The notes under the pieces: model-generated
The model's input: only the letters and a program-made list of their open reading frames with translations
The model's database searches: none
What the model was told of the DNA's origin: nothing
DNA from: Octopus sinensis
Lineage: Eukaryota
DNA length: 25,483 bases
NCBI RefSeq assembly: GCF_006345805.1
Contig: NW_021836044.1
Span: 1-25,483, forward strand
Reading direction: 5' to 3'
Part shown: positions 2,994 to 25,483 of the stretch, piece after piece
How positions within the stretch are numbered: the first letter of the stretch is position 1
Layout of the letters: the number at the start of each line of letters is the position of its first letter
Made by a program: the position numbers and the translations under genes

Positions 2994-3085
2994 TTCTTCC
3001 CCCGGAGAGGTGATGTTATCCAACAATGGACCCTGATATCTGTCGTATATCAGGACCACAAAGATCCCTGAAACGGCCGTAGAAC
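2994..3085 (+). ncRNA. Degenerate hammerhead motif
   Basis: CCGGAGA (2 mismatches to CUGANGA, 3002-3008), long stem II containing cctgatat/atatcagg, GAAA (3070-3073), palindromic cggccg, UA, then gaac. Same architecture as the 13609 ribozyme. Confidence 0.4.
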
Positions 3086-3417: not shown

Positions 3418-3763
3418 TATATTAAGGGCATTACTATATAGAAATGCCTCGCGCTAAGAGGGATTCTTGAAGTCAACACTACTATAATAATCACATTGTA
3501 TCAAACGCAAGGATACAAGAGATCGTCTGGTACGTTGATTTTTGTTAAATTTTATGTCTTGACAAAGGCTGCGCTGATGAGTGAAAAGTGCATTTTGTGC
3601 ACTAATTACGGAATCATATGATGTTCAGCTACGTCTGTTTCTGGAGGCTCGCTTTGAGAGTTGCATTCCCTCGCGTTTTGTACAATGTGGGCATTATAGT
3701 AGTTTTGACTTCAAGAGACCCTCCTAGCGTGAGGCATTTATGTATAAATAATGCCCTTAATAT
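3418..3763. repeat. Older imperfect inverted repeat (arms ~3418-3518 and 3661-3763) enclosing a decayed hammerhead
   Basis: attaagggcatta..aaatgcctc.cgcta.gaggg..tcttgaagtcaa.actactataat..cacattgta is matched by its reverse complement. Flanked by TA-rich microsatellite. Confidence 0.85.
3567..3630 (+). ncRNA. Degenerate hammerhead motif
   Basis: CUGAUGA (3574-3580), stem II with agtgca/tgcact, GGAA in place of GAAA (3610-3613), palindromic stem III tcatatga, UG in place of UH, stem I ggctg/cagct. Confidence 0.45.
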
Positions 3764-4339
3764 ATATAAATATATTCATAGGGAATAATTAATAAGTTAT
3801 CCCTTCTGAGGTTTTTCACAATAACTACTTGATAAATCCTCGTAAAAATGTTATCCTATATTTCAATTATATATATTTATTAGTAGCCCCAAACTTACTT
3901 TGTTATATACACACACACACACTTATGTATAATATATATATATATAGAATATATATATATATATTATAATATATATATATATATATATTACATATATGTA
4001 TATATCTATGTATATGTGAGCATGTGTATGTATATGTGTATGTGTTTCAGTTTCCACTATGACCGCTTAGGAAGAGGTTCCGGTTTTTTACGTCCCAGTA
4101 ATTTGGCCGATCGGTATCTTGTTAATTCCTTACAACCACTTGAAACTTTTCACATTTTTACCACATCATTTTCAAAGCATTTACGTCTGATGCAGAATTG
4201 CCTGCCGCTGACGATAATTGCATTCATGTTTTTCTTTTTTCTGGTAAGTAATAAAAAAAAATCAAAAGTATAAAGTTGCGTAACTGTAGGCAAATCAGCG
4301 GAAGGGATCGCGAGAATACGCAGCAGGCTTAACAACAAA

Positions 4340-4697: not shown

Positions 4698-6195
4698 TGG
4701 AACGAGATAACGAGTAGGGTGGTCACTCTCGCCCAGCAATGGGCCGAGAGGAAAGTGTCCCTAAAAGGTCGGGCGGAGGTGGCGAACGCCTACATCGCGT
4801 CCATCATCTACTACCGCCTGACCGTCGTACCTTGTCCCGACCCTACCATCACCAAACTAGAACGCATCCTCTTCCGCTTCTTGTGGAAAGGATGCGTCCC
4901 GATGGTCAGGCGATCCATTTGCTGCCAACACCCGTTAAAAGAAGGGCTGGGCATGCCGTGGTTGATGATGCGCAGACACGCGCTGAGACTGCGACATCTC
5001 CGGCTCTATGTTCACGACGGTGAACAGGTGTGGTCGCCGTTTGTGAGGCACGCATTCCCGCAACTCGTCTCCATGACCGAACAACAGTCGTGGATCAAAA
5101 AGAGGCCGAGGAAGGGCGAATGGCACCGCGAGTGTCGCGTTGCTCTCAAGCAACTCTGCCGTCCCAGGTCGACCTTGAGTGACTTCAACACAACCAAAGA
5201 ATTCTATAGGGGATTAGTGGAGGGGAGGTACGACGACGATCTCGTGGCAAACCTGGGCGTCGACGAGGAATACCTGACCCGCCTGTTTCAAACGACTTTC
5301 GGCCCGGGACCTATGGACAACTTCCAGAGATCCCTGGCCTGGCGGTGCTACCGAGAAGCGCTACCCGTTCGGGATAAGCTCTATAGGCATGGCTCGAGAA
5401 ACACGGGGCCGACCTGCCCGAGATGCGGGCAGAGCGACGAAACCGCTCTGCACGCAATCGTGCAGTGTCCAGCAATTTCCGACCTGTGGGCTTATGTCGA
5501 ACGACTGCTGTCACGTGTGGGACGTGTCGGTTTATCAGCCGAGTCTATCGTTAATATCGTCACGCCTCCTCCCTTCAAACGGGAAGGAAGAGCTATTTTT
5601 ATCATACTTGTGGCTATGGCGAAAGAATGTATCTGGTGGACGCGCCCGAAAGGATTGGAGACAAACACTTTCCTCTCTGGTCAATCTCTCATCAACTTCT
5701 TCAAGTATCACATGAAGAGGAAAGTGAGAGTAGAGAGGCAAATTTTGTCTAGCGAATGTTTTAAAAAAAAGATGGGTGAATGTAGCAAGGATGGCACGTA
5801 TGAATGACGAAGCCACCTTGACTATGTTTCTATGAACCGTAAAAATTAATACAGAGAGTTGCTTATTTGCAAAAAAAAAATAAAAGAAAGAAATATAACA
5901 TGTGACTTCATTGACCGAGGTTATCGTGGTCTTTTCCGTAGGCTTTTCTTTACACTTCATATTGACATTTCTGTGATTACGATCCCTATTGATCAACTTT
6001 TTTCCTCTCCCCTTTCCTTTTATTTTTTTCCCTCTCCCCCCTTTTTTAAAAAAATCCTCCCCTTTTTGTCCTCTTTCTTTCCTTTTACGATCCCTTTTGA
6101 TCGAAACCCAACCCCCTTTTTTTACCCCCAAAAGAAAAGCTCAACCTTGTAATTTGTTCTGTCTGTGTGCAGCCCTGTGTGGCTAATAAAGAAAC
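4698..6195 (+). mobile_element. 5'-truncated Tx1/L1-clade non-LTR retrotransposon (C-terminal ORF2 plus 3' UTR)
   Basis: Open frame WNEITSRV..SLKGRAEVANAYIASIIYYRL..FRFLWKG..GLGMP with a zf-RVT CCHC motif CPRCGQSDETALHAIVQC. One extra A in the run at ~5763-5770 hides the likely true end KKRWVN..TMFL* (5835). AATAAA at 6185. Flanked on both sides by (TATC)n. Confidence 0.9.
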
Positions 6196-6522: not shown

Positions 6523-7351
6523 AATCAAACTATCATGTGTCTGTCTAGCTATCTCTCTATCAATCATTGTCTGTATCTTTATCTTTCTATCTCTCTATCT
6601 ATTACGTCTCTCCATATATCGATATACATATATATATATACACACACATATATACATTCATTTACATTTGCTTATTTTGACACACACAAACACACACGCA
6701 GACACACACTTTCACACACACATATACATAATATAAAGGGAGAGGAAAATCAAATCATGGGACGCAACTTACAAGCATTGTACTACAATCCAGGCTCTGG
6801 TAAACCACATCGAATGGTCCGGCAAAACGGGAAAATCTTTATGGTAAACAATCATTGTCTTTCACTTAGTTCCAAAATTCCGAGTTCACTATTTCGGGTT
6901 TTATCCTGTGTAAAAGACATTAAAATAAGAATTAAATGTTACACATGAAGTAACTTACTTTTTAGTATATTTTATATACAATGAAATTTAGTTATTTTAT
7001 ACCTGTGAATGACACGCCTTTCTGCTGCATGTATATCATAAGCATTAGCATCAGGTTACATCCTGCTGGTTGAAAACTGTACCACCAGTATGCAGTAATT
7101 ATAACTTTAGACTCAGATACTGATACCGGTGGAATGTAAAATACGGCTGCATGCCATTGCTAAAATTTTGAATAAACAGGATGCAAACTTACACCGGGCA
7201 CAATAATGTGCTATGATACACATATACACACCCGCAAACACACACATGCTCACACATACACACACACACATTCATATATATATACGCATAATTGTGTTCG
7301 TTGTGTTCTGCTACTTCAATGAAAAAATGTTTGGTAAATAAACAAATGACG

Positions 7352-7399
<48 letters not shown>

Positions 7400-7437
7400 A
7401 CATATATATATAAACATTCACTAACTCTTACGAACAG

Positions 7438-7456
7438 AGGTGAAACCAATTCTTTG
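7438..7456 (+). other. Paralogous candidate 19-nt micro-exon
   Basis: CACTAAC-tcttacgaacAG | AGGTGAAACCAATTCTTTG | GTAAGT. Splice signals match the 16621 copy while 3 of 19 exon bases differ. Confidence 0.4.
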
Positions 7457-7631
7457 GTAAGTTACGATTTTCATTATATTACATCGGCCATCAATTGGCC
7501 ATCGTTCAGACACCTCAACGGCATTTAGGATGGGATAAAAAGGGTCTCCACCCTTAAGACATCATATGTTTGTGTTCCCAAATTACCTAAAATGTTATTT
7601 ATGCTTTTATTTTTACTTCAGTAATTTTCAG

Positions 7632-7843
7632 TTAACCCATTAGCATTGGCACTGGCCACGTCGGGCCCAAATATTCTTCCTGTTTTCTGTGGAAACTGAA
7701 CACATTAGTCCTTTCACAACCACCATGCAGTTATTCTAAAAGTAAGCAATCACATAATCAAAATCTCAAAGCTAGAAGATAACGTATGTTTAATTGTAAA
7801 CGATGTGAATAAATAAGTAATTCATCTGAATGTTGAAGGAGTA
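7632..7843. mobile_element. Decayed piggyBac-type MITE (paralog 16815-17028)
   Basis: Left end TTAA-CCCattagcatt and degenerate right end aatgttgaaggagta, about 210 bp, non-coding. Confidence 0.5.
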
Positions 7844-8385
7844 TCCCCTTCTAGCTGGTACAATAATGAAACAGCAATTCCATCTCAAATTACAAGTGGG
7901 GTCTTTTTTAAGAACACATTTCAGGTTCGAGGGAGTGGTTAAGAATGTTAGTAGTACAAAAAATCGGGTCGGTATTTTTCTTAGTATTTGACTTTTGTTA
8001 ATTATTGTTTGAAGCCGAGAAGGGTCAAATGAGAGTAGAGACGGTTGAAAAGCAAAAATTTGAAGAAATTTGTGATGTGTGTTGGAGAGATTTAGGAGGC
8101 TGAGAGGAGGATGAAAAATCGATTGATCATAATACTTGGAATAAATTTGGGATGCGTGTTATATATATTTATATTTCTGTGGGTATCTATATATATGCTG
8201 ACTACTTAATGTTTTTGATACTGTGTATTAATGTAGGAGTTTATATGTATATATATTGTGCGTATATGTGTGTGTGTTTGCATGTATGTATGTAAGAGCT
8301 TATATGTATATATTATGTATTTGTAAATGCAATTTTGGATATTTCATATGTATTGCATATGCTCATATATATATATATATATATA

Positions 8386-9577: not shown

Positions 9578-10420
9578 TTTCATTTTTTGTCATATTCATA
9601 TCGACTTCCACTCCATAAACGTTACACAAACACTTGACTGCGCATGCCTAAATGTCTACATTAAAGTATTTTCTAAGCTAAATTCTCTGCTTGATCTACA
9701 GGCTCATTAGGCCCCCAGTATATCTCGGTATCGAACGCATTTCAACACACAAGGATGCAACACAAGATGCCAGTCTGTCGCAATGTTAACCCCTGGTTAA
9801 TGCTGGTACTTTTCAGATGAGAGCACTGGAAGTGTCTTTCTCGTGGACACAACTTACCGAAACAATAATCCATACGCCTATATGTGTGTGTGTGCGCGCT
9901 TACGAACATATCCGTGCGTATGTGTGTGTATTTTTGTATGCATGTACACACACACACACACAATCTTTTATTCTTTTAATCTTTTGCTTATTTAAGGTGA
10001 ATTTCAAAGTCGTTATGCCAATCACATAATCACCTTCCGACATAGGCCAAAAGTAAAGCTACGAAAGTGGCTAAGTTTGGAAGAAAACGAAACACCACAT
10101 GTGACTGGTTGGGAAGTAATTGAGAATCCATAACTGATGTGAATGGATCGAATAAATATATGCTTTGTTTAGCTGAAAGAGTGCATATCCTGTTCAGATC
10201 TAAGATGCTTAATTCTCTATTGGACTCTAGGTCGGAAATTTTCAGTCGTTATCAAGTAAAAATATATTTTGAAAAACTGAAAAATTCCGTCTATTCTTGA
10301 TTAAAATTATGATATCTTTTTAGCCTTATAATTCAAGGTCTAACGAGAACTCTTAAATGCTGTTTTTACTTTTCCCTTTTCCCATTTTCGTTTTTGTGCT
10401 TTCGCTTTCCGATTTCCGGA

Positions 10421-11785
10421 ACACTGGGCATGCTGTGGAAGACATGCACTGGGGCTGCGGCATCTCCAAACATTCTGCGTAAATGGTGAACAGGTGTGGT
10501 CATCGTTTGTCAAACAGGCTTTTCCACATCTCATCTCCTTGAGTAAGCTGCAGTCGTGGGTCAAGAAGAGACCGAGGAAGGGTTACTGGCATCTGGAATG
10601 TTGCTAGGCACTCACTGTCCTCTACCAGGTGGGCAATGCGATCAGTGGAAAATCCACTCTGAAGTTCTATGGAGGTTTAGTGGAGGGAAAGTGCGATGAA
10701 GCACCTGGAGAGACGTTAGGCGTTGACAAAATTGAACTAACCAGTCTGTTGAGGAGGACTTTCAAGACGGGGATAATGGATAACTTCTAGAAGTCCCTTG
10801 CTTTGCAGTGCTATCGGGGGGCACTGCCGGATCGAGATAAACTCTACAAGCACGGAAGCGCTGTCTGACCGACCTACCCGAGATATGCGCAGAGCGATGA
10901 AAGCGTTCTGCACGCACTCGTCCAGTGTCCCTGCATTACTGGCTTGTGGAGTTATGTTGAAAAGCTGTTATTAAGTGTAGGGAGTTTCTATCTATCGGCC
11001 GAGTCCGTAGTGAAGATCGATCAGCCGCTTTCCATCAGTCCGGAAGGTCAGGCAATTTACTACTGTCTAATAGCAGGAGCGAATGAGGCTGTTTTTTGGA
11101 CCAGGTTAAAAGGACTAAAGGCAAGGACTTTTCTCTACGGCAAATCACGGGTCAACTTTTTCAAAGTTTCTTTGGAAAGGAAGATGAGGGTGCAGAGTGA
11201 AGTGCTGCCTCCCAGTACATTTGCCAAAAGGTGGATGAACAGAGAAAATGGTACGTGTGAGTGGACCTACTCTAATAACACGCCTTTGGGCTAGTGAATT
11301 TGAGAGGGAGGAGAGTGCTCTCACCAGATGCCCTCGAAGCGTCGAGTGGTTCAGGATTGGGGTGTGGGTACCTGAGCCAACTCCAGGGGATTACCTGCAC
11401 CTATTACGAACTTTCATTGTTATATTCTCTTGTCGGACATCATTGTTATTCTTTTAACTGTGTACTCGTTGTCTCTGTGTTAAATCCCCACTGTCCATGT
11501 CTACTGTGTCCTGTTTCTTTACTACCCACAAGGGGCTAAACACAGAGAGGACAAACAAGGACAGACAAACGGATTAAGTTGATTATATCGACCACAGTGC
11601 GTAACTGGTACTCATTTAATCGACCCCGAAAGGATGAAAGGCAAAGTCGAACTCGGGGGAATTTGAACTCAGAAGGTAACGGCAGAAGAAATACCGCTAA
11701 GCATTTCGCTCGACTTACTGAAGATTCTGCCAGCTCTCACCGCCTTTTCTACTGTATCTTCTCCCATATGCCGGCCCTATTGGCA

Positions 11786-11790
<5 letters not shown>
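10421..11790 (+). mobile_element. Duplicate of the 670-2025 Tx1/L1 fragment
   Basis: Same 5' junction, same internal stops and same nested SINE. Retains 16 bp (aaaagctgttattaag) that are deleted in copy 1. Confidence 0.85.
11514..11745 (-). mobile_element. SINE, duplicated copy of 1746-1977
   Basis: Near-identical to the 1746 SINE at the same position within the duplicated LINE. Confidence 0.88.
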
Positions 11791-11817
<27 letters not shown>

Positions 11818-11964: not shown

Positions 11965-12295
11965 GGAATTTTTTTCCGGCTAAACTTTTCACTCACTTCT
12001 CAGTAAAATTGTCATTTAACGCAATCGTTAATGTGATATTCCCTCCAGTTTCATATTAAAGAAAAGATTAGGCAGGGTTGTGTATCTAATTGCATCACAC
12101 ACACAGACACACACACACACACTCACAATCGTACACATCAACTCTCCTCCTCTTCTTTCCCCTCTCTCTCTCTTCTATCACTCCCTCTCCCCACTCTCTC
12201 ATTTTAACTCTTCCACTTCCACCGCCAATCGTCATAAACTGCTGACTGAAACTTTTCAAATCGAAATAATAAAATTAGAAATACAGATGCCATAT

Positions 12296-12361
<66 letters not shown>

Positions 12362-12585
12362 TATGTGTGTGTGTGTGTGAAATAGAAAGATGAATAATCT
12401 TGTAGTAGATTAATCAAAAGTTTAACCGATACCTTAGTAGCAAAAATCACAGCAGTAAACAGCACGGTTGGAGGTACAACCATCTGGCGTTGCAACCGTG
12501 CGTTGGTGCGGATAATTGAAATTAAAACATTATTGGTGAATTGAAGAAATGGAGCTGAACGCAGATTGAACAGAAATCGTTTTAT

Positions 12586-12672
12586 TTCATTCTACACGTG
12601 TTTCGAAAGGCACAAATTACCAAAATCCGATTGAATAATGGGACCATATTGTGTCTTTCTCTTCAGGAAGAA
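12586..12672 (-). ncRNA. Type I hammerhead ribozyme, inverted copy
   Basis: Reverse complement of the 13609 motif with CUGAAGA at 12666-12660. Stem II is better paired here (gaaagacacaa/ttgtgcctttc, 10 of 11 pairs). Confidence 0.8.
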
Positions 12673-13608
12673 AAAAGGAAATCCGTTGGAAAAACAAAAA
12701 CAGAACTGAGGCGGAGCAAAAACAAATCGAACTATGCTCCTAAGAGCCCATGGCGAAACTGTTTATCAGTGTATGTTGAGAACCGGTGGCTGAAGAATTC
12801 AACGGGTCAGGCATCGGTCAATCATGTGGGTGAGGGTGTATAGATGTTCTTTGTGACCGAGAATAAAGTTCTGACTATTTAAGGAATATTGGATGTTTTA
12901 TAAGGGGCGAGAAAAAATCTACTTAGAGACGTGTGTGTGTGTATACTGTTCTATATATGTGTGTGTTGGCGTAGGGGTAGAAAACATTTTTTGTGTACGT
13001 GTGTGCGTTTGATCGTTCGGCTGTCAGTGGCTACTGCCGTGAAAACCGTTGGGTGGCAGAAAGAAAAAAAAATATATATATATTATGTTTTATGTGTGCG
13101 TGTGTTCATCTAAGCCTGCCTTGTCAAGGAAACCCCCCGCTGTGAAAAAACCAAGCCCCGTTTGTCTTACAGGAGTAATTCCCCTTGCAGTGGTTAATCG
13201 TAGATATCTTTTTTTTTCTTTCTGCCACCCAACGGTTTTCACGGCAGTAGCCACTGACAGCCGAACGATCAAACGCACACACGTACACAAAAAATGTTTT
13301 CTACCCCTACGCCAACACACACATATATAGAACAGTATACACACACACACGTCTCTAAGTAGATTTTTTCTCGCCCCTTATAAAACATCCAATATTCCTT
13401 AAATAGTCAGAACTTTATTCTCGGTCACAAAGAACATCTATACACCCTCACCCACATGATTGACCTATGCCTGACCCGTTGAATTCTTCAGCCACCGGTT
13501 CTCAACATACACTGATAAACAGTTTCGCCATGGGCTCTTAGGAGCATAGTTCGATTTGTTTTTGCTCCGCCTCTGTTCTGTTTTTGTTTTTCCAACGGAT
13601 TTCCTTTT

Positions 13609-13693
13609 TTCTTCCTGAAGAGAAAGACAATATGGTCCCATTATTCAATCGGATTTTGGTAATTTGTGCCTTTCGAAACACGTGTAGAATGAA
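13609..13693 (+). ncRNA. Type I hammerhead ribozyme (PLE-type)
   Basis: Stem I 5' ttcttc, CUGAAGA (13615-13621), stem II gaaag...ctttc, GAAA (13675-13678), palindromic stem III cacgtg, UA (GUA triplet, cleavage after 13686), stem I 3' gaa(t)gaa. Confidence 0.8.
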
Positions 13694-13764
13694 ATAAAAC
13701 GATTTCTGTTCAATCTGCGTTCAGCTCCATTTCTTCAATTCACCTATATATATATATATATATG

Positions 13765-14845
13765 TCTTAGGATGTGGAATGTTCGTATCAGCTAACACGG
13801 ACTGTGTCATCATAATACAGTCCACGAAGTGGTGATAGGAGCAATGCTTATCCAAGAGAAGTCAGTGGGCCTGCAAATCGGCAGGTGGAGAGGCAGACCC
13901 ATACCAACCGACAGTTTGTAGGGCGTTAGACGGAAAGACAGGTTAAACTGCTTGGGTTCTGGTTTGCTCTTGACCTCGGGGTGGACAACAACGGCTGGGA
14001 GGTGACGAACAGGATAGTCGATCTCACCCAGAAGTTGGCAGAGAGGAAGCTGTTCGTGAATGGTCGAGTCGAAGTGGCGAATGCGTACATCCCTTCCGTC
14101 ATCTATGACTGCCTGAATGTAGTCCCATGCCCGATAAAGTTAGAGCGTTTGTTATTCCGCTTTCTAAAGAAGGGACGTGTTCCGCTCATCAGACGGTCCA
14201 TCTGCTGTCAACAACCTCTCAGTGGAGTACTGGACATGCCGTTGCTAATGATTCGCAGACATACGCTGAGACTGCGACATCTCCTGCGTTTCTTTAACGG
14301 TGAGCATGGGGGATTGACTGTTTGTCAAACGGGACTTACCGCAGCTCGTCTCACTGATGAAGCTACAGTACTGAGTGAAGCGTTGGCCAAGAAAGGGCGC
14401 TTGGCACCTGGAGTGTCGGCAAGCTCTCACAGCTTTCTGCCAGTCGGCAACGCGGGCGTTGATAGTTCCACCATGGATTTCTATAGGGGATTAGTAGAGG
14501 GGAAAGAACAACAACGAAATCGGGTAAAATTCTGGGCGTAGGTGGAGGGAATCAACTAACTGGTCTTTAACTTCCAGGAATCCCTGGCCTGGCAGTGCTA
14601 CCTGGGAGCTCTGCCGATTCAAGACAAGCTCTACAGATACGAAAGTGTTGTCGGACGAATATGTCGAGGGTGTGCGCACGGCGATGAAATAGTCCTGCAT
14701 GCACTCATCCGTCCAGTTTACGAGCTGAGTTCATTGTAAAGATCGCCCCGCCACCTTCTTTTGGCCGGGAAGGAAAAGCAGTTTCTTCTGCGCGGTGGCT
14801 AAAGAAGTACAGTGGTGGACGAGACTGAAAACATTGAAGACTAAA
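13765..14845 (+). mobile_element. Decayed Tx1/L1 LINE fragment (end of RT through the zinc-finger region)
   Basis: EKSVGLQIGRWRGRP..VKLLGFWF..ERKLFVNGRVEVANAYI..IKLERLLFRFL..RRSICCQQP..FYRGLVEG..NFQESLAWQCY is clearly homologous to the 4698 ORF. Confidence 0.85.
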
Positions 14846-15589
14846 CCTCCTTCACAGAAAAATTATGTCATTTAATATTATCATTTAATATTATCATTAA
14901 TATTCACTTCAGTTTTATATTAAAGAAACACTTAGGCATGGTTATGTATCTCATTGCATCACACACAAACACACACACAAACACACACACACACACACAC
15001 ATACACACACACACACACACACACATACACATCAGGACATATACACTTGAAGACCCTTCACACCACAAAATCCTCGCCTGTCATCCTTCTTTCGTATAAA
15101 ATAATGTTACTTTGTTAACGAAAATTCTTTTCCCATAACTTTAAAGCTGCTAAAACCTTTAATTCCTCTTCAGAATTGTTATAATTTCTCTATCATATAC
15201 TTTATTTCACAAACGTAATTTTCTGAAACGAACTATTGTTAAATGAATTTGTATCATTTGCTTCCAAGTCAATCATTATATATACCATTTAAATTATTAT
15301 CGTTATTGATAACGTGATTTTCTTTAGTGACACTATCGTTAAATGAATCTATCGTCTGCTCACAGGAAATATTTGGCTGCTATTTCTAGCACATCCAGCT
15401 TAAACTTCAGAGATTCTTCACGAAGAGAATGGTGGATGACAATGTGAACACTGGAGGGTCTTACAAAGAATTTAGAAATGTACTTCATTTTAATGTTGAC
15501 TTTAGACGTTGTATTTGGGAAGAGATCGATGATCAATAGGTATCGATTATTTCTTTGATACGAAAGTTTCTTCAGAGTATTACTTCTTC

Positions 15590-16069: not shown

Positions 16070-16620
16070 ATATAGATATATACATGAATATATACGTATA
16101 TATAATTCTGATAACTGTGTGTGCGTGTGTATATATATATACATACATATACTCACACACACACAGATATCACAATTTGTAAAATAGTACTTAGATTATT
16201 TCAAGTTAATTTCAGTTCCGCGGATGCAAACAGTCTCATACAGTTACGCATATACACACACACATACACACACAAAACCCACTACCTCTTCTTTCTCCCA
16301 CCCTCCCTCTCTCTTTCTATCACTTTCTTTCCCCTCTCTCATTTACACTCTTCCACTACCAACGCCCATCTTTGACTGCTGACGCAAACTTTTCATATCG
16401 CATTCATATAATGAGAAATAAAGACGCCAATCTATATCTACACACACACACACACACACACTCACACACGCACACACACATATATATATATGCATTATTG
16501 TGTGCTTTGTGTTCCGCTACTTCAATGAAAAAATGTATGGTAAATAAAACAAATGACGCAATATATATATGCGCATATATATATATATATATATAAACAT
16601 TCACTAACTTTTACGAACAG

Positions 16621-16639
16621 AGGCGAAATCACTTCTTTG
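16621..16639 (+). other. Candidate 19-nt 5'-UTR micro-exon of the LRR gene
   Basis: Branch point CACTAAC, then ttttacgaacAG | AGGCGAAATCACTTCTTTG | GTAAGT. The ATG exon at 18689 has its own acceptor, so an upstream exon is required. Confidence 0.5.
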
Positions 16640-17079
16640 GTAAGTTACGATTTTCATTATATTATATCGGCCTTCTATTGGCCATTGTCCAGTCTCCTCA
16701 ACAGCATTAAGGATGGGATAAAAAGGGTCTCCATCGTTAAGACCTCATTAATTTGTGTCCCGAAATTACCTAAAATGTTATTTATGCTTTTATTTTTACT
16801 TCAGTAATTTTCAGTTAACCCATTAGCATTGGCACTGGCCACGTTGGGCCCAAATATTCTTCCTGTTTTCTGTTGAAACTGAACAGATCAGCCCTTTCAC
16901 AACCACCATGCAAAGTTATTCTAAAAGTAAGCAATCACATAATCAAAATCTCAAAGCTAGAAGATAACGTATGATTAATTGTAAACGATGTAAATAAATA
17001 AGTAATTTATCTGAATGTTGAAAGAGTATCCCCTTCTAGCTGGTACATTAATGAAACAGCAATTCCATCTCAAATTACA

Positions 17080-17355
17080 AGTGGGGTCTTTTTTAAGGAC
17101 GCATTTCAGGTTCGAGAGAGTGGTTAAGAATGTTAGTAGTACAAAAAATCGGGTCGGTATTTTTCTTAGTATTTGAGTTTTGTTAAGTATTGTTTGAGGC
17201 CGAGAAGGGTCAAATGACAGTAGAGGCGGTTGAAATGCAAAAAATTTGAAGAAATTTGTGATGTGTGTTGGTGAGATTTGGGAGGCCGAGAGGAGGATGA
17301 AAAAGCGATTGATTATAATTTGCTTCGTTTGATTTAGGGCCATTTTTATTTGTTC
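17080..17355 (-). mobile_element. Possible N-terminal PLE ORF fragment (paralog at ~7895-8135)
   Basis: Frameshifted TNILNHSL.EPEM.VLKK.P resembles the PLE pre-RT motif (VxNLSxxxLxxxExxVLxKG). Confidence 0.35.
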
Positions 17356-18158: not shown

Positions 18159-18708
18159 CTTACGTTCATGCTTTATTCTTGTTTTCAGGAAAAAAAAGTA
18201 AGTAAAATGAAATCATGAAAGTGTATTTGAGGAAAAATTTGTATAAACGCTTCTAAACCTGGGGTACAGGAAAAATTCCTTTGTTACAATACAGTTGCTT
18301 GTGGGGTCCCATCGGATTTAACGACCCAACCGGGTTTACAACCACTGCGTATTTAGGGTCTACGAAACTCATGGTTCGCTGGTTTTGTAAATATATTAGA
18401 CCCCACCCCCGAGTATGGTTACAGATGTGTGTAGGAGTGCGTTTGTGTTTGTGTGTGTGTGTTTGGTGTTTTCTTTGATATTATTACGCGTTAAAGCTAT
18501 AATATTTTTATAAATTTCTTCACACTAATTTATCGAAATTTAATTTTTTAGCTTTAAATATCCAATCATGAAAACAAAAATATATTTGTCATGTAGAACA
18601 GGTGTGAATTTTAGTTCCTTCGGAGAATCTGCAATGTGAAGTTAATAACATTGTAATCTCTGACATTTCCTATTTTCTTCTTTTACAGATAAATCTACGC
18701 CTGGCAAT

Positions 18709-21244: not shown

Positions 21245-22015
21245 GAACAGAACCTTCGTGAAGAAGAAAAGAAAGCCTTACAAACTGAAGAATGACAATT
21301 CAATCATCCTAAAAGAAACCGATTAGGGAAGGGTGATAGCAGTCACGGACCAAGACTACTATAAAAATAAAATATTGGAAACAGACCAATCCTGCTACAA
21401 GGAAGAACCAAGACACCCGGAAAAAGTAATAATGAATACACTCAAAAGTCTGATAAATGAATACCAACGTTCGTTCACAGATAAAGAGAAAGATTATTTA
21501 TGCAGCTCTGTAATGAAAGAGAGTAATTTCTATGGATCACCCAAGATCTGCGAATGCTCCAAAATGCAAGGATCAGCATATAAAAATACTAAGACCTACT
21601 GACATCAAATTGAGATCAACAGTTGCTGGACCTTGAGCCCCAACACAACAACTGAGCCATCTTTTGGATATACTCCTCAAACCGTTATGCCCATTAATGG
21701 CCAGCTATACCCGAGACGATATGGATCTCCTCAAGCACATTCCACAAGCACATTCCACCCACTGTCCCAGACGTACTATAGTGACAAGCTTTGATTAATT
21801 TTTACACTAATACACATCACACTTTGGGCCTGGAAGCAATCAAACACTGGGTAGAAAAACATAGCGGACGGATGGACGAACGCTTCAAAACGCATTTCCA
21901 AAGACACACGCCGGGAACTAGAAGACAACACCTTTAGATTCGATAATAAACTATATCGACAGATAAAAAGGACATCACTACGGGGACGAGGTTCGCACAC
22001 ATACTCGCACCCAGA
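21245..22015 (+). mobile_element. Penelope-like element reverse transcriptase pseudogene fragment in LRR intron 1
   Basis: Across frameshifts: NLREEEKKAL..LKNDNSIILKETD*G..DYYKNKI, FYGSPKI (cf. FYGLPKIHK), LRSTVAGP..LSHLLDILLKP..SYTRD, TSFD, NTFRFDNKLYRQIK. These are characteristic PLE RT motifs. Confidence 0.85.
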
Positions 22016-22192: not shown

Positions 22193-22835
22193 TTCTTCTC
22201 CTCCTTCTTCTTCTTCTTCTTCTTCTTCTTCTTCTCTTCTCCGTCTTCTTCTTCGTCTTCTTCTTCTTCGTCTTCTTCTTCTTCTTCTTCTTCGACTTCT
22301 TCTTCTTCTTCTTCTTCTTGGTCTTCTTCTTCTTCTTCTTCTTATTATTATTATTCGTCTTCTTCTTCTTCTTCTTCTTCTTCGTCTCTCTTCTTCTTCT
22401 TCGACTTCTCTTCTTCTTATTCTTCTTCCTCCTCTTGGTCTTTCTTATTTCTATTATTATTCTTCTTATATTATTTCTTCGCTTTCTTTTTCTTCTCGTT
22501 CTTCTTCTTTTTTTTCTTCTTCTTCTTGAATCTTCATCTTCTACGCCTTTTATTTCTTCTTCTGTTTCTTCTTCTCTCTTCTTCTTCTTCTTTTCTCTCT
22601 TGTTCTTTATCTTCTTCTGTTTCTTCTTCCTCCTCTTCTTCTTCTTCTGCTTCTTCCTCTTCTTGTTCTTTATCTTCTTCTTCTTCTCCTTTCTTCTTCT
22701 TCTACTTCTTCTTCTGTCTTTCAATCCTTTTTCGGTTTTCATCTTGAACACTTTCATTTTCCATGTCTACTTTTTCTTGTTCTTGTTCTTCTTGTTCTTG
22801 TTCTTCTTCTTCGTTATATTTCTTCTTTTTCTTCC
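22193..22835. repeat. (TTC)n-rich polypyrimidine tract; a second TTC/CCT tract lies at ~23985-24545
   Basis: Directly visible; it produces the spurious poly-K/R and poly-F/L/S ORFs. Confidence 0.95.
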
Positions 22836-22918
22836 TTTCATTCTGAAGTCACAGTGTTTGATATCGTATCACAAATATTTTCCATATAATCTATTTTACT
22901 CTTTCTTTACTGCTATAG

Positions 22919-22990
22919 AGATCTGAACGAGAACAACATTGCAACCATCAAAGAAGGAGCATTCACGGGGCTTTCGAATTTAAAGACATT
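22919..22990 (+). CDS. Single-LRR exon, 72 nt, phase 2-2: (L)DLNENNIATIKEGAFTGLSNLKT(L)
   Basis: Acceptor ctttctttactgctatAG ends at 22918 and donor GTAAGT starts at 22991. Exactly 24 codons matching the extracellular LRR consensus LxLxxNxIxxIxxxAFxGLxxLxxL. Joins in frame with the phase-2 LRRNT exon. Confidence 0.93.
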
Positions 22991-23534
22991 GTAAGTTCGT
23001 TTAGTTTCTTGATACTATTTTCCGAAAGTAATAATTGATGCTGATATATAAGCTCACAAATGTATAAAATTTCAGACTCCACCAAACAAAATCAATTCGA
23101 ATTTGTAGAATGAACACGATTTAGGAAGATACAAAGAGAATATGAGAGAGCGAGACAATGTGAAAGAAAGAGAGAGAATTTGGGGAGAAAGTGAAATAAT
23201 GGGGAAAATATAATGTTCCTTTATTGTAGTTGCGTTGTTTCAATTCGCATCTCAACAAATCATTTTTGTTTCCCAAATTTCAAAGGTTTTGATATGAATT
23301 TGTATTAGAAATGGTAACGTTTGTGAGTTCACATGTTTGCATCAAATATTTTTAGCTGAAGTATATGTGTATGTTCATATATAAGTGTAGTTCTGTGTGA
23401 GATGTGACTATATTATTCCTTTATTTTATATTTTGCATCTTCCTCCATTTCTTATTTCAATATTCTCCTTCGTGTTTCGATATTAACATTCAACTTCGAA
23501 TTTTGTCATTCACTTCACGTTATTTATGTAATAG

Positions 23535-23621
23535 AGCAACTGAAGTGGAAGCGGAAAATATATATTCGAATAATATCGTCACATCCATTCTATCTGTAAA
23601 CCTGAAATACTTACTGTACTT
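23535..23621 (+). CDS. Candidate extra 87-nt phase 2-2 exon with an atypical LRR-like peptide (ATEVEAENIYSNNIVTSILSVNLKYLLY(L))
   Basis: About 130 nt of AG-free pyrimidine-rich sequence ends in taatAG at 23534. The exon ends TT|GTAAGC like the other exons, is frame-preserving and has no stop. A paralog sits at 25235-25326. Confidence 0.35.
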
Positions 23622-24621
23622 GTAAGCTGGAATATTTGGCCTGATACAATTAAACTGCTGATATATTTCTTGTAAGCGTGTGTTTTCTAAAATTCTTGTG
23701 ACAATGAAGCGATATGAAATAAATAATCACTCTCACCATATTTCCACACAGGTGAGTGAGAATATGTGTGATTGTGAGTGTGTGTATCACCTTACGTCGT
23801 TGATATTATCAATATAAGTATGTGTATGAGTGCATTTGGATATGTTGATTTCTGAAACCGTATATTCCCTGACCTTTAGCCAAGTTCTCTCCTTCAAAAC
23901 GTTTGTTCCCTGTCCCTGAAATATCTCCTTTTTTTCTTTGACTACATTTTCTCTTTCACCTTCTTGAACACCATGATTTTCAATGTGTCTTCTTCTTCTT
24001 CTTTTTCTTCTCTTCTTCTCCTTTTCTTCTTCTTTTCTTCTTCTTCTCCTCCTCCTTCTTCTTCTTCTACTTCCTTTTTCTCTTCTTCTTCTTCTTCTCC
24101 TTCAACTTTTCTTCTTCTTCTTCTTCTTCTTCTTCTTCTTCTTCTTCTTCTTCTCTTATTTCATAAACTTACTCCCGTCTTTTCTGCTTCGTCAGTTTTC
24201 TCCTTTTTCTTTCTCTTCTACTCTTTTCTGCTATTCTCATTCTCCTCCTGCCCATTCTGCACCTCTTCTCTTCTCTCCACCCCTCTCTTCCTCCAATCTC
24301 CTTTTCCTCCTCCTCCACGCCTTCTCCACTTCCCCCGCCCCCTACAAATCACCTTTCCCACCTCCTCATCACCTCATCCCCTTCTACCCCTCCTCCTTCT
24401 TCATTTTTCTTCTCATTCTCCTCCCCTTCTCGTCCTCCCCTACTCTCTTCCTCTCATCCCCGTACGTCTTCTTCTTTTCTTCTTCTTCTTCTTCTTCTTC
24501 TTCTTCTTCTTCTTCTTCATTATCCCTATTCTTTCTCTCTCTTCATTCTAAAGTCACAGTGTTTGATGTCGTATCACAAATATTTTCCATATAATCTATT
24601 TACTTTTCTTTACTGCTATAG

Positions 24622-24691
24622 ACGTCTTGGCAACAACAACATCGCAACCATCAAAGAAGGAGCATTCACGGGGCTTTCGAATTAAAGACAT
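24622..24691 (+). CDS. Second copy of the single-LRR exon, (L)RLGNNNIATIKEGAFTGLSN...; as assembled it is 70 nt with a frameshift/stop, either a pseudo-exon or homopolymer sequencing errors
   Basis: Same acceptor as the 22919 exon. Differs at its 3' end by three single-base losses, all in homopolymers (aattTaaag>aattaaag, acaTT>acaT, gtAAgt>gtagt). Confidence 0.7.
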
Positions 24692-25483
24692 GTAGTTCGT
24701 TTAGTTTCTGATACTATTTTCCGAAAGTAATAATTGATGCTGATATATAAGCTCACAAATGTATAAAATTTCAGACTGCACGAACAAAATCAATTCAAAT
24801 TTGTAGGAATGAACACGATTTAGGAAGATACAAAGAGAATATGAGAGGGCGAGACAATGTTGAAAGAAAGAGAGAGAATTTGGGGGAAAGTGTGAAATAA
24901 TGGGAAAATATAATGTTCCTTTATTGTAGTTGCTTTGTTTCAATTCGCATCTCATATAACTCATTTTTGTTCTACAAATTTCAATGATTTTAATATGAAT
25001 TTGTATTAGAAATGGTAACGTTTGTGAGTTTACATGTTTGCATCAAATATTTTTAGCTGAAGTATATGTGTATGTTCATATATAAGTTGTAGTTCTGTGT
25101 GATAGGTGAATATATATTCCTTTATTTTATATTTTACATCCTCCTCCATTTCTTATTCAATATTCTCCTTCGTGTTTCGATATTATCACACAATTTCGAA
25201 TTTTATCATTCACTTCACGTTATTTATGTAATAGAGCAACTGAAGTGGAAGCGGAAAATATATATTCGAATTTTTTAAAAAATCTAGTACACATCTATCT
25301 GTAAACCTGAAATACTTACTGTACTTGTAAGCTGAATATTTGACCTGATACAATTAAACTGCTGATATATTTCTTGTGAGCGTGTTGTTTTTCTAATATT
25401 TTGTGACAATGAAAGCGCTAATGAAAATAAATAATCTCTCTCACCATATTTCCACACAGGTGAGTGAGAATATGTGTGATTGT

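Follow-up and report, generated by a model that had tools for sequence, protein, structure and literature searches.

A young foldback with two divergent hammerhead motifs in Octopus sinensis, probably the by-product of a single 5'-truncated Penelope-like insertion

A 1.2-kb foldback in the genome of Octopus sinensis carries a hammerhead motif near the outer end of each arm, and it raises the question of whether this palindrome is an element in its own right or the trace of an insertion of something else. We analysed the whole 25,483-nt stretch of contig NW_021836044.1 in which it lies (hereafter the window). Realignment placed the arms at 12535-13072 (538 bp) and 13209-13744 (536 bp), separated by a 136-bp spacer, in agreement with the coordinates, lengths, spacer and approximately 99% identity given by a first-pass annotation made from the sequence alone. 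The arms are 99.3% identical and differ in three places in total, namely two substitutions (12815/13466 and 12707/13574) and one 2-bp indel. The first-pass annotation had interpreted the foldback as a young, non-coding, ribozyme-bearing element. Youth and lack of coding content are retained in our analysis, but the unit is an 831-bp repeat copy and not the palindrome. The locus consists of this copy and a shorter inverted copy, joined head to head within a (TA)n tract. It most likely arose by the 5'-truncated insertion of a Penelope-like element (PLE), the second arm probably being made by self-primed fold-back copying during integration. The features are as follows, with the source of evidence in brackets where it applies.

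12292-12379, no strand: (TA)n(TG)n microsatellite that probably forms the left side of the target site (sequence).
12380-13210, minus strand: main copy, 831 bp, 5'-truncated and non-coding; it is the 3' end of a repeat, likely a PLE, that carries a hammerhead and is present in high copy number (contigs of four runs).
12380-12534, minus strand: 155-nt 3' extension found in the main copy only, a one-sided tail with a predicted hairpin (contigs and folding).
12535-13072, minus strand: left arm, 538 bp, the segment of the main copy that is duplicated in the inverted copy (alignment).
12583-12676, minus strand: type I hammerhead-shaped motif, left copy, with C3 at 12666, a 55-nt helix II region, a palindromic helix III and a predicted cut after 12593.
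13071-13080, plus strand: likely fold-back annealing site, pairing at 8 of 10 positions with 13201-13210 (pairing count).
13073-13208, minus strand: spacer, the unduplicated 5' part of the main copy, opening with a (TA)5 run on the plus strand (contigs).
13201-13210, plus strand: point at which the main copy is truncated, which would be the 3' end of the first-strand cDNA, and junction of the inversion (contigs, pairing).
13209-13744, plus strand: right arm, 536 bp, the shorter inverted copy without the spacer and without the 155-nt extension (alignment).
13605-13696, plus strand: type I hammerhead-shaped motif, right copy, with C3 at 13615, a 53-nt helix II region that has lost 2 nt of helix II, and a predicted cut after 13686.
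13745-13763, no strand: (TA)9T, probably the right side of the target site; directly behind it begins a decayed L1/Tx1-like fragment (sequence).

The extent of the repeat was examined with short contigs (about 100 bp) from four public sequencing runs, placed on 12381-13215, that is, on the left flank, the left arm and the spacer. Sequence of this stretch was contained in 20 of the 24 runs listed, and half or more of its words in 19 of the 24 (10 studies, eight coded organism labels); a wastewater run with a 0.18 share was left out of the contig mapping. Three DNA-type runs gave 7880, 2089 and 2366 placed contigs, and the fourth run gave 145. The summed contig depth in the DNA-type runs was mostly between 100,000 and over 1,000,000, indicating a high-copy family, depth not being equivalent to copy number. 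Contigs covered 29 of the 30 bins of 12381-13215 in every one of the four runs, the uncovered bin (13053-13080) having been skipped as a repeat and not representing a gap. Depth steps near 12535 were disregarded, as contig depth cannot rank parts of the stretch. The 155 bp to the left of the left arm belong to the family: overlapping contigs tile 12381-12562 into the arm, with a depth of the same order as that of the arm. The spacer is also family sequence in all four runs; far from being neutral filler, it corresponds to the 5' part of the longer copy. At 13210 a loose end was observed, where 11, 3 and 8 contigs, in three of the three DNA-type runs, run on with letters unlike those of the right arm. 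The family is therefore at least 831 nt long and continues upstream of 13210. Since it covers both the spacer and the left flank, and since other copies pass 13210 with different letters, the palindrome is most likely the by-product of a single insertion rather than, as initially proposed, the element itself.

The borders of the locus had been described as (TA)n. This is correct for the right arm, which abuts (TA)n directly, whereas on the left a further 155 bp of the repeat family lie between the arm and (TG)n(TA)n. With (TA)n present on both sides of the locus, a target-site duplication is unreadable inside the microsatellite. The 155-nt extension is predicted to fold at -31.1 kcal/mol (a single prediction with no shuffled comparison). 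The L1/Tx1-like fragment that follows the right (TA)n tract is 68% identical to 4704-5260. Four decayed L1/Tx1-like 3' fragments are present in the window on the plus strand (590-1500, 4700-5810, 10340-11300 and 13764-14690), with 67-68% mutual identity, and the copy at 4701-5804 contains a zf-RVT domain. The window also contains a tandem duplication with a unit of about 9.5 kb (15-2033 and 9771-11801, 94.5% identical; 7235-8133 and 16441-17319, 90%), and an older local duplication of 75-78% identity (12004-12304 with 14873-15002 and 16237-16440), the second copy of which is split by about 1.2 kb. The foldback is present only in the second unit of the 9.5-kb duplication. As the two units diverge after 2033/11801, no empty target site can be aligned in the first one.

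We then considered the inversion junction. The ten bases at 13201-13210 pair with 13071-13080 at eight of ten positions, including the last two, exactly at the start of the inverted copy. For the same end, three of 804 possible sites pair as well, and 208 of 322,664 end-site pairs do so overall. The predicted pairing energy is -2.4 kcal/mol, in AT-rich sequence of low complexity; this weakness and composition mean that the pairing supports fold-back priming and does not prove it. The literature on PLEs, cited here and below from the accessible parts of the texts, provides a framework for such a structure. Frequent 5' truncation and an adjoining inverted 5'-truncated copy at the 5' end of PLEs are described in PMC8557442, together with a 30-40-bp tail that is often present at one end only, with (TA)n targets for Naiad and Neptune, and with a (TA)n bias that masks target-site duplications. 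Junction palindromes between head-to-head copies have been interpreted as the result of self-priming (PMC3846280), although the origin of the inverted arms is called an open question in both articles.

On this basis, the following course of events may be proposed. The AT microsatellite would have been nicked by a reverse transcriptase/GIY-YIG protein that a PLE provided in trans. First-strand cDNA synthesis would have started at the 3' end of the element (12380) and stalled at 13210. The 3' end of this cDNA would then have annealed to 13071-13080 on the same strand and been extended by 536 nt. The extended strand would then have been joined to the (TA)n tract on its other side, so that the last 155 nt of the element remained on one side only. 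Three mutations would have occurred since, over about 0.8 million years if the octopus clock applies. This age derives from three differences in 538 sites, or 0.28% per arm, on an octopus scale in which a JC distance of 0.09 corresponds to 25 million years (PMC13282606, from its accessible part); it is rough, and would be an underestimate under gene conversion. The small number of differences between the arms agrees with the young age assigned to the locus from the outset.

Other origins of the second arm have to be weighed against self-primed copying. The 1.2-kb palindrome as a whole could be the mobile unit, a foldback or MITE-like family carrying two ribozymes, as its near-perfect long terminal inverted repeats and the TA at its right end might suggest. 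Further copies are conceivable since the joint cannot be counted in other runs: it is absent from the contigs of the four runs, and the interval where it would map (13048-13098) was skipped in the mapping. We consider this reading very unlikely. Only the left arm is continued by the spacer and the left flank, both of them family sequence, family contigs read other letters at the inner end of the right arm in three of three DNA-type runs, and the outer ends differ by 155 nt; identical terminal inverted repeats at both ends of a unit repeated as a whole, the trait of foldback and MITE families, were not found. An inversion that took place after the insertion, through a replication template switch or a repair event at the AT-rich junction, is just as improbable. 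Such an event would be compatible with the junction microhomology, which fits any fold-back priming, and with a window rich in local duplications. It would not account for the recurrence of inverted 5'-truncated partners in PLE insertions (PMC8557442 and PMC3846280 in their accessible parts, and locus L057 below), and the right arm ends cleanly at (TA)n with no flanking host DNA copied.

Least probable of all is a sequencing or assembly artefact, in which the second arm would come from a chimeric fold-back read. The junction was not recovered in the four runs, in a region that was partly skipped, so that this is not evidence of absence. Assembly indel errors may exist, as the second copy of a leucine-rich repeat (LRR) exon in the window lacks single bases in short runs, and the 2-bp arm indel could be such an error. 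However, each arm differs from the family by a substitution of its own. More than 99% of the family depth at 12707 has the letter of the right arm, indicating that the change in the left arm is private; at 12815 and at the 2-bp indel no family variant was listed, indicating that the family matches the left arm and that the changes in the right arm are private. The remaining subfamily letters are common to both arms. This pattern fits one template that was copied twice and then mutated independently, and fits poorly with a chimeric read, in which one allele is copied; nor would a chimera resume into unique downstream sequence at the (TA)n tract.

Examination of the hammerhead motifs showed that each arm contains the complete type I core attributed to it, CUGAAGA, GAAA, a GUA site and a palindromic helix III all being located and the three helices having the type I layout; these letters agree with the consensus core CUGANGA/GAAA/NUH. 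In both motifs helix II opens with five Watson-Crick pairs, the first being G10.1-C11.1, helix III has 2 bp whose letters lie inside an 8-nt palindrome, and helix I has three pairs and is then extended beyond a mismatch. The motif pattern matched twice in the window and on average 0 times in 100 shuffles, none of which reached two matches. The term 'intact' nevertheless applies to these ribozymes in a structural sense only: the layout is complete, but the Rfam score is low and the ribozyme fold lies above the minimum energy. Hammerhead_1 (RF00163) reached 15.0 and 14.8 bits in two short stretches, far under its gathering score of 34, though it was the best Rfam model by E-value in both. The Rfam scan of the whole window returned 43 matches, nearly all of them microsatellite-driven miRNA matches, and no hammerhead. 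Used as a positive control, the same model missed the motifs in six of six PLE loci, and its low score here therefore says little. The ribozyme fold was predicted at -6.8 kcal/mol against -13.6 for the minimum-energy fold on the right, and at -10.9 against -16.9 on the left, a gap of 6-7 kcal/mol. Helix II passes from -13.0 kcal/mol in the left motif to -8.9 in the right one, after the 2-nt loss of the latter, and the isolated right motif folded no better than shuffles (z 1.24). The palindrome of helix III is predicted to form an intermolecular duplex of -12.3 kcal/mol, suited to a dimer, and in these models the earlier proposal that the ribozyme would need to dimerise appears right. In the accessible part of PMC4209133, a single Schistosoma motif did not cleave and dimers cleaved at a low level.

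Variation in the family was also inspected. None of the 28 listed family variants falls in the core and helix III (about 20 positions), but fewer than one would be expected there, given 17-19 DNA variants in about 780 bases, and the count is uninformative about core conservation. Four common family variants lie in predicted helices: two add a pair (12616 and 12675), one keeps a G-U (12641) and one breaks a pair (12587). Four variants, read by hand, are too few to establish helix covariation. The exact hammerhead letters had no match in metagenome contigs or in viral contigs. Elsewhere in the window, a third, minimal hammerhead-shaped motif was found at 2194-2232 on the plus strand, with a 6-bp helix II, an additional nucleotide following position 9 and a helix III that is a 4-nt palindrome; it is likely the stump of another PLE family. 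A decayed hammerhead-like stretch at about 3046-3085 (plus strand), with an 8-nt palindrome after GAAA, was noticed by eye and fails the palindromic-helix-III descriptor. In the left hammerhead, a 21-codon frame (12647-12582, minus strand) opens with an ATG in the loop of helix II, with no homology supporting coding; in an Anolis PLE the ORF begins at helix II (PMC11167929, accessible part).

We infer PLE membership of the family from architecture, since there is no coding similarity inside the element and no ORF linked to the family. As a comparison set, we fetched 86 loci encoding relatives of PLE-type reverse transcriptases (RT), using a seed protein with RVT_1 and GIY-YIG domains. A descriptor of type I hammerheads with palindromic helix III matched 27 of the 86 loci (31 matches, 29 of them on the RT strand), against one match in 20 shuffled sets; in the window it matched both arms and one further site, at 2194. 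With a relaxed pattern, and with no shuffled comparison, the motif was found 84-448 nt after the ORF match in nine of 14 loci, these 14 having been selected among the 86 for a match reaching the protein C-terminus. Some motifs lie about 1 kb past the RT match (4882 for a match end at 3734 in L028; 5301 for 4314 in L039). Inverted repeats of at least 60 nt were detected in five of the 86 loci. In one of them, L057, inverted arms of 214 bp (96.7% identical; 3640-3850 and 5683-5896) carry outward-pointing hammerheads on either side of the RT match, the same layout around an RT as that of the octopus foldback. The earlier pointer to PLE terminal repeats is judged right. Against this link, the foldback motifs have a helix II region of 53-55 nt against 11-22 nt in the PLE-RT loci, and do not have the extra nucleotide after position 9 present in 22 of the 31 PLE-RT matches. 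No DNA similarity was detected between the element and the 86 PLE loci (best E 0.26). Two loci (L072 and L075) contain direct pairs of identical hammerheads 2.5-2.6 kb apart, and six contigs filed in prokaryotic genome bins (L081-L086) encode animal-type PLE proteins, probably as a result of host DNA contamination of these bins. A broken Penelope-type reverse transcriptase fragment lies in the window at 21294-22007 on the plus strand (tblastn E 5e-39 to mollusc PLE proteins), for which an Octopus bimaculoides protein was the only match among 17 candidates (56% identity); no link was found between this fragment and the foldback family. The match, taken with a composition rich in microsatellites, points to an octopus as host. 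According to the accessible part of PMC13282606, 31 recently active Penelope-like families exist in Octopus vulgaris.

The absence of a credible ORF, already noted in the first-pass annotation, held in Pfam, protein and tblastn searches, the last with PLE proteins. Tblastn of 121 PLE proteins and an HMM built from 58 of them gave no similarity to PLE coding sequence in the 831 bp better than E about 0.1, and no RT or GIY-YIG coding sequence was found there, as expected of a 5'-truncated copy. A 70-codon open frame (12382-12591, minus strand) was considered as a PLE N-terminus and rejected: its two matches among 1.84 billion proteins were both tandem-repeat proteins and attributed to chance, and its only Pfam match, to KwaB, was below threshold. 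The other open frames of the arm and spacer matched no Pfam family.

Upstream of the hammerhead core the sequence is non-coding for at least 544 nt, and this bears on the nature of the parent element. The same insertion mechanism could have acted on a non-autonomous family, an ORF-less hammerhead-bearing PLE parasite (a monomeric retrozyme or a SINE-like element), instead of on a 3' UTR belonging to a coding element. Such a sub-case concerns the parent and is compatible with a fold-back origin of the arm; we regard it as possible but doubtful. The non-coding stretch exceeds the 84-448 nt that separate ORF match and motif in nine of 14 PLE loci, the copy number is high, the family is present under eight organism labels, and animal retrozymes have been proposed to be pLTR-derived (accessible part of bioRxiv 10.64898/2026.07.22.740005). 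Conversely, the motifs about 1 kb behind the RT match in L028 and L039 show that such distances occur, the family extends upstream of 13210 beyond 831 nt, and no tandem units are present here. A fuller version of the same idea seems to us unlikely. The parent would be an undescribed ORF-less PLE parasite, present in high copy across several related species, probably octopuses, with a long-helix-II hammerhead and the 155-nt hairpin 3' module as an extended tail. Its insertions would routinely be sealed by self-primed fold-back, each yielding a long dsRNA in which the ribozyme is silenced and which undergoes A-to-I editing. The element is not a retrozyme as defined in the literature, as the window contains no head-to-tail tandem units and the unit is at least 831 nt long.

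Whatever the parent, the head-to-head arrangement of the arms would have consequences for any transcript of the locus. The full hairpin is predicted to reach about -1070 kcal/mol, to have 90% of its bases paired and to include a duplex of about 535 bp, whereas the ribozyme fold reaches only -7 to -11 kcal/mol. Competition between hairpin formation and self-cleavage, anticipated in the first-pass annotation, is therefore expected, but would be more one-sided than was stated there. As the antisense arm is transcribed first on either strand, and each transcript has one sense ribozyme, neither the monomer nor the helix III dimer should form in cis in read-through RNA. Cleavage in cis in such RNA thus appears unlikely from these models, unless transcription begins inside the spacer, and the function of the locus today is predicted to be passive, with the ribozyme shut and the RNA a substrate of ADAR type. 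In the run X9, which is RNA-like according to the guess of the tool and whose sample differs from those of the DNA runs, of the 28 differences listed, eight have essentially no counterpart in the three DNA-type runs: five A>G, two T>C and one C>T. Seven of these eight are of editing-type classes (p 2e-5 to 2e-3 if independent), in about three contig clusters for which any copy of the family may be the source. These differences hint at A-to-I editing at the level of the family, and the proposed ADAR substrate finds in them a weak family-level indication and none specific to this locus. The related proposal that the foldback lies inside an intron of an LRR gene is plausible on sequence grounds. 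An LRR exon 9 kb downstream (22919-22990) matches LRR_8 (E 0.00018, below the curated cut-off), and possible plus-strand micro-exons of 19 nt each lie on either side of the element (7438-7456 and 16621-16639). These two candidates are conserved between the duplicated units; a further possible micro-exon of 9 nt is found at 18189-18197 on the plus strand, and all three have AG/GTAAGT borders. The LRR exon and flanking intron are themselves duplicated (22270-23775 and 23987-25483, 82.5% identical). The first 72-nt exon is open, while in the second (from 24622) single bases are missing from short runs and the frame ends at a stop, suggesting either a pseudo-exon or an assembly error.

The significance of the locus is modest. 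It adds a clean, young inversion junction that keeps the 8 of 10 pairing expected of a self-primed fold-back, and the very high copy number of the family would allow inversion junctions to be counted genome-wide. It also adds a cephalopod hammerhead variant with a long helix II, of which we found no description in the open literature; the family may be contained in Repbase or Dfam, in subscription journals, or in the supplements to PMC8557442 or PMC4209133.

Comparison with known systems, again from the accessible parts of the sources, places the foldback as follows. With EN+ PLEs (Penelope/Poseidon, Neptune, Nematis and Hydra; PMC8557442, PMC3846280) it shares a 5'-truncated longer copy (13210-12380) adjoined head to head by a shorter one (13209-13744), a one-ended extension, insertion in a (TA)n target with (TA)n on both sides and no readable target-site duplication, near-palindromic pairing at the junction, and, close to the 3' end and in the sense orientation of the element, a hammerhead whose helix III is short and palindromic. 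In canonical EN+ PLEs the ORF encodes a telomerase-like RT with a GIY-YIG endonuclease at its C-terminus, and full copies have direct pLTRs in partial tandem. The foldback differs from these elements in having no ORF remnant and in the length of its extension, the 155 nt of which, against a published tail of 30-40 nt, count against the PLE reading. In an Anolis PLE, insertion in vitro is independent of hammerhead cleavage and reverse transcription begins inside the RNA (PMC11167929). The motifs resemble the minimal hammerheads (min-HHR) of metazoan PLEs (PMC4209133) in their full type I core, G10.1-C11.1 pair, palindromic helix III and short helix I, and differ in a helix II of 53-55 nt and in having no additional nucleotide inserted between position 9 and position 10.1. 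The same work reports dual min-HHRs on opposite strands, about 100-700 bp apart, attributed to truncated PLEs; the two cores are 949 bp apart here. Animal non-LTR retrozymes (PMC7229834, bioRxiv 10.64898/2026.07.22.740005) are likewise non-coding and high-copy, with a type I hammerhead and presumed use of PLE machinery, but their head-to-tail tandem units are about 170-400 nt long and give rise to circular RNAs, whereas the unit is at least 831 nt here and its copies are inverted, so that the two ribozymes are never on one strand. Palindromic repeats acting as hyper-edited dsRNA have been reported for a frog Harbinger and a lizard Penelope, with an octopus hyper-editing signal among the strongest (PMC5625713); the present locus would, if transcribed, similarly give a self-contained long hairpin, the hint of editing here being at the family level only. 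Both the head-to-head layout (PMC8557442) and the divergent hammerhead pair (PMC4209133) are already in print, and the foldback is most likely an ordinary, young example of a known by-product of PLE insertion and not a new kind of element.
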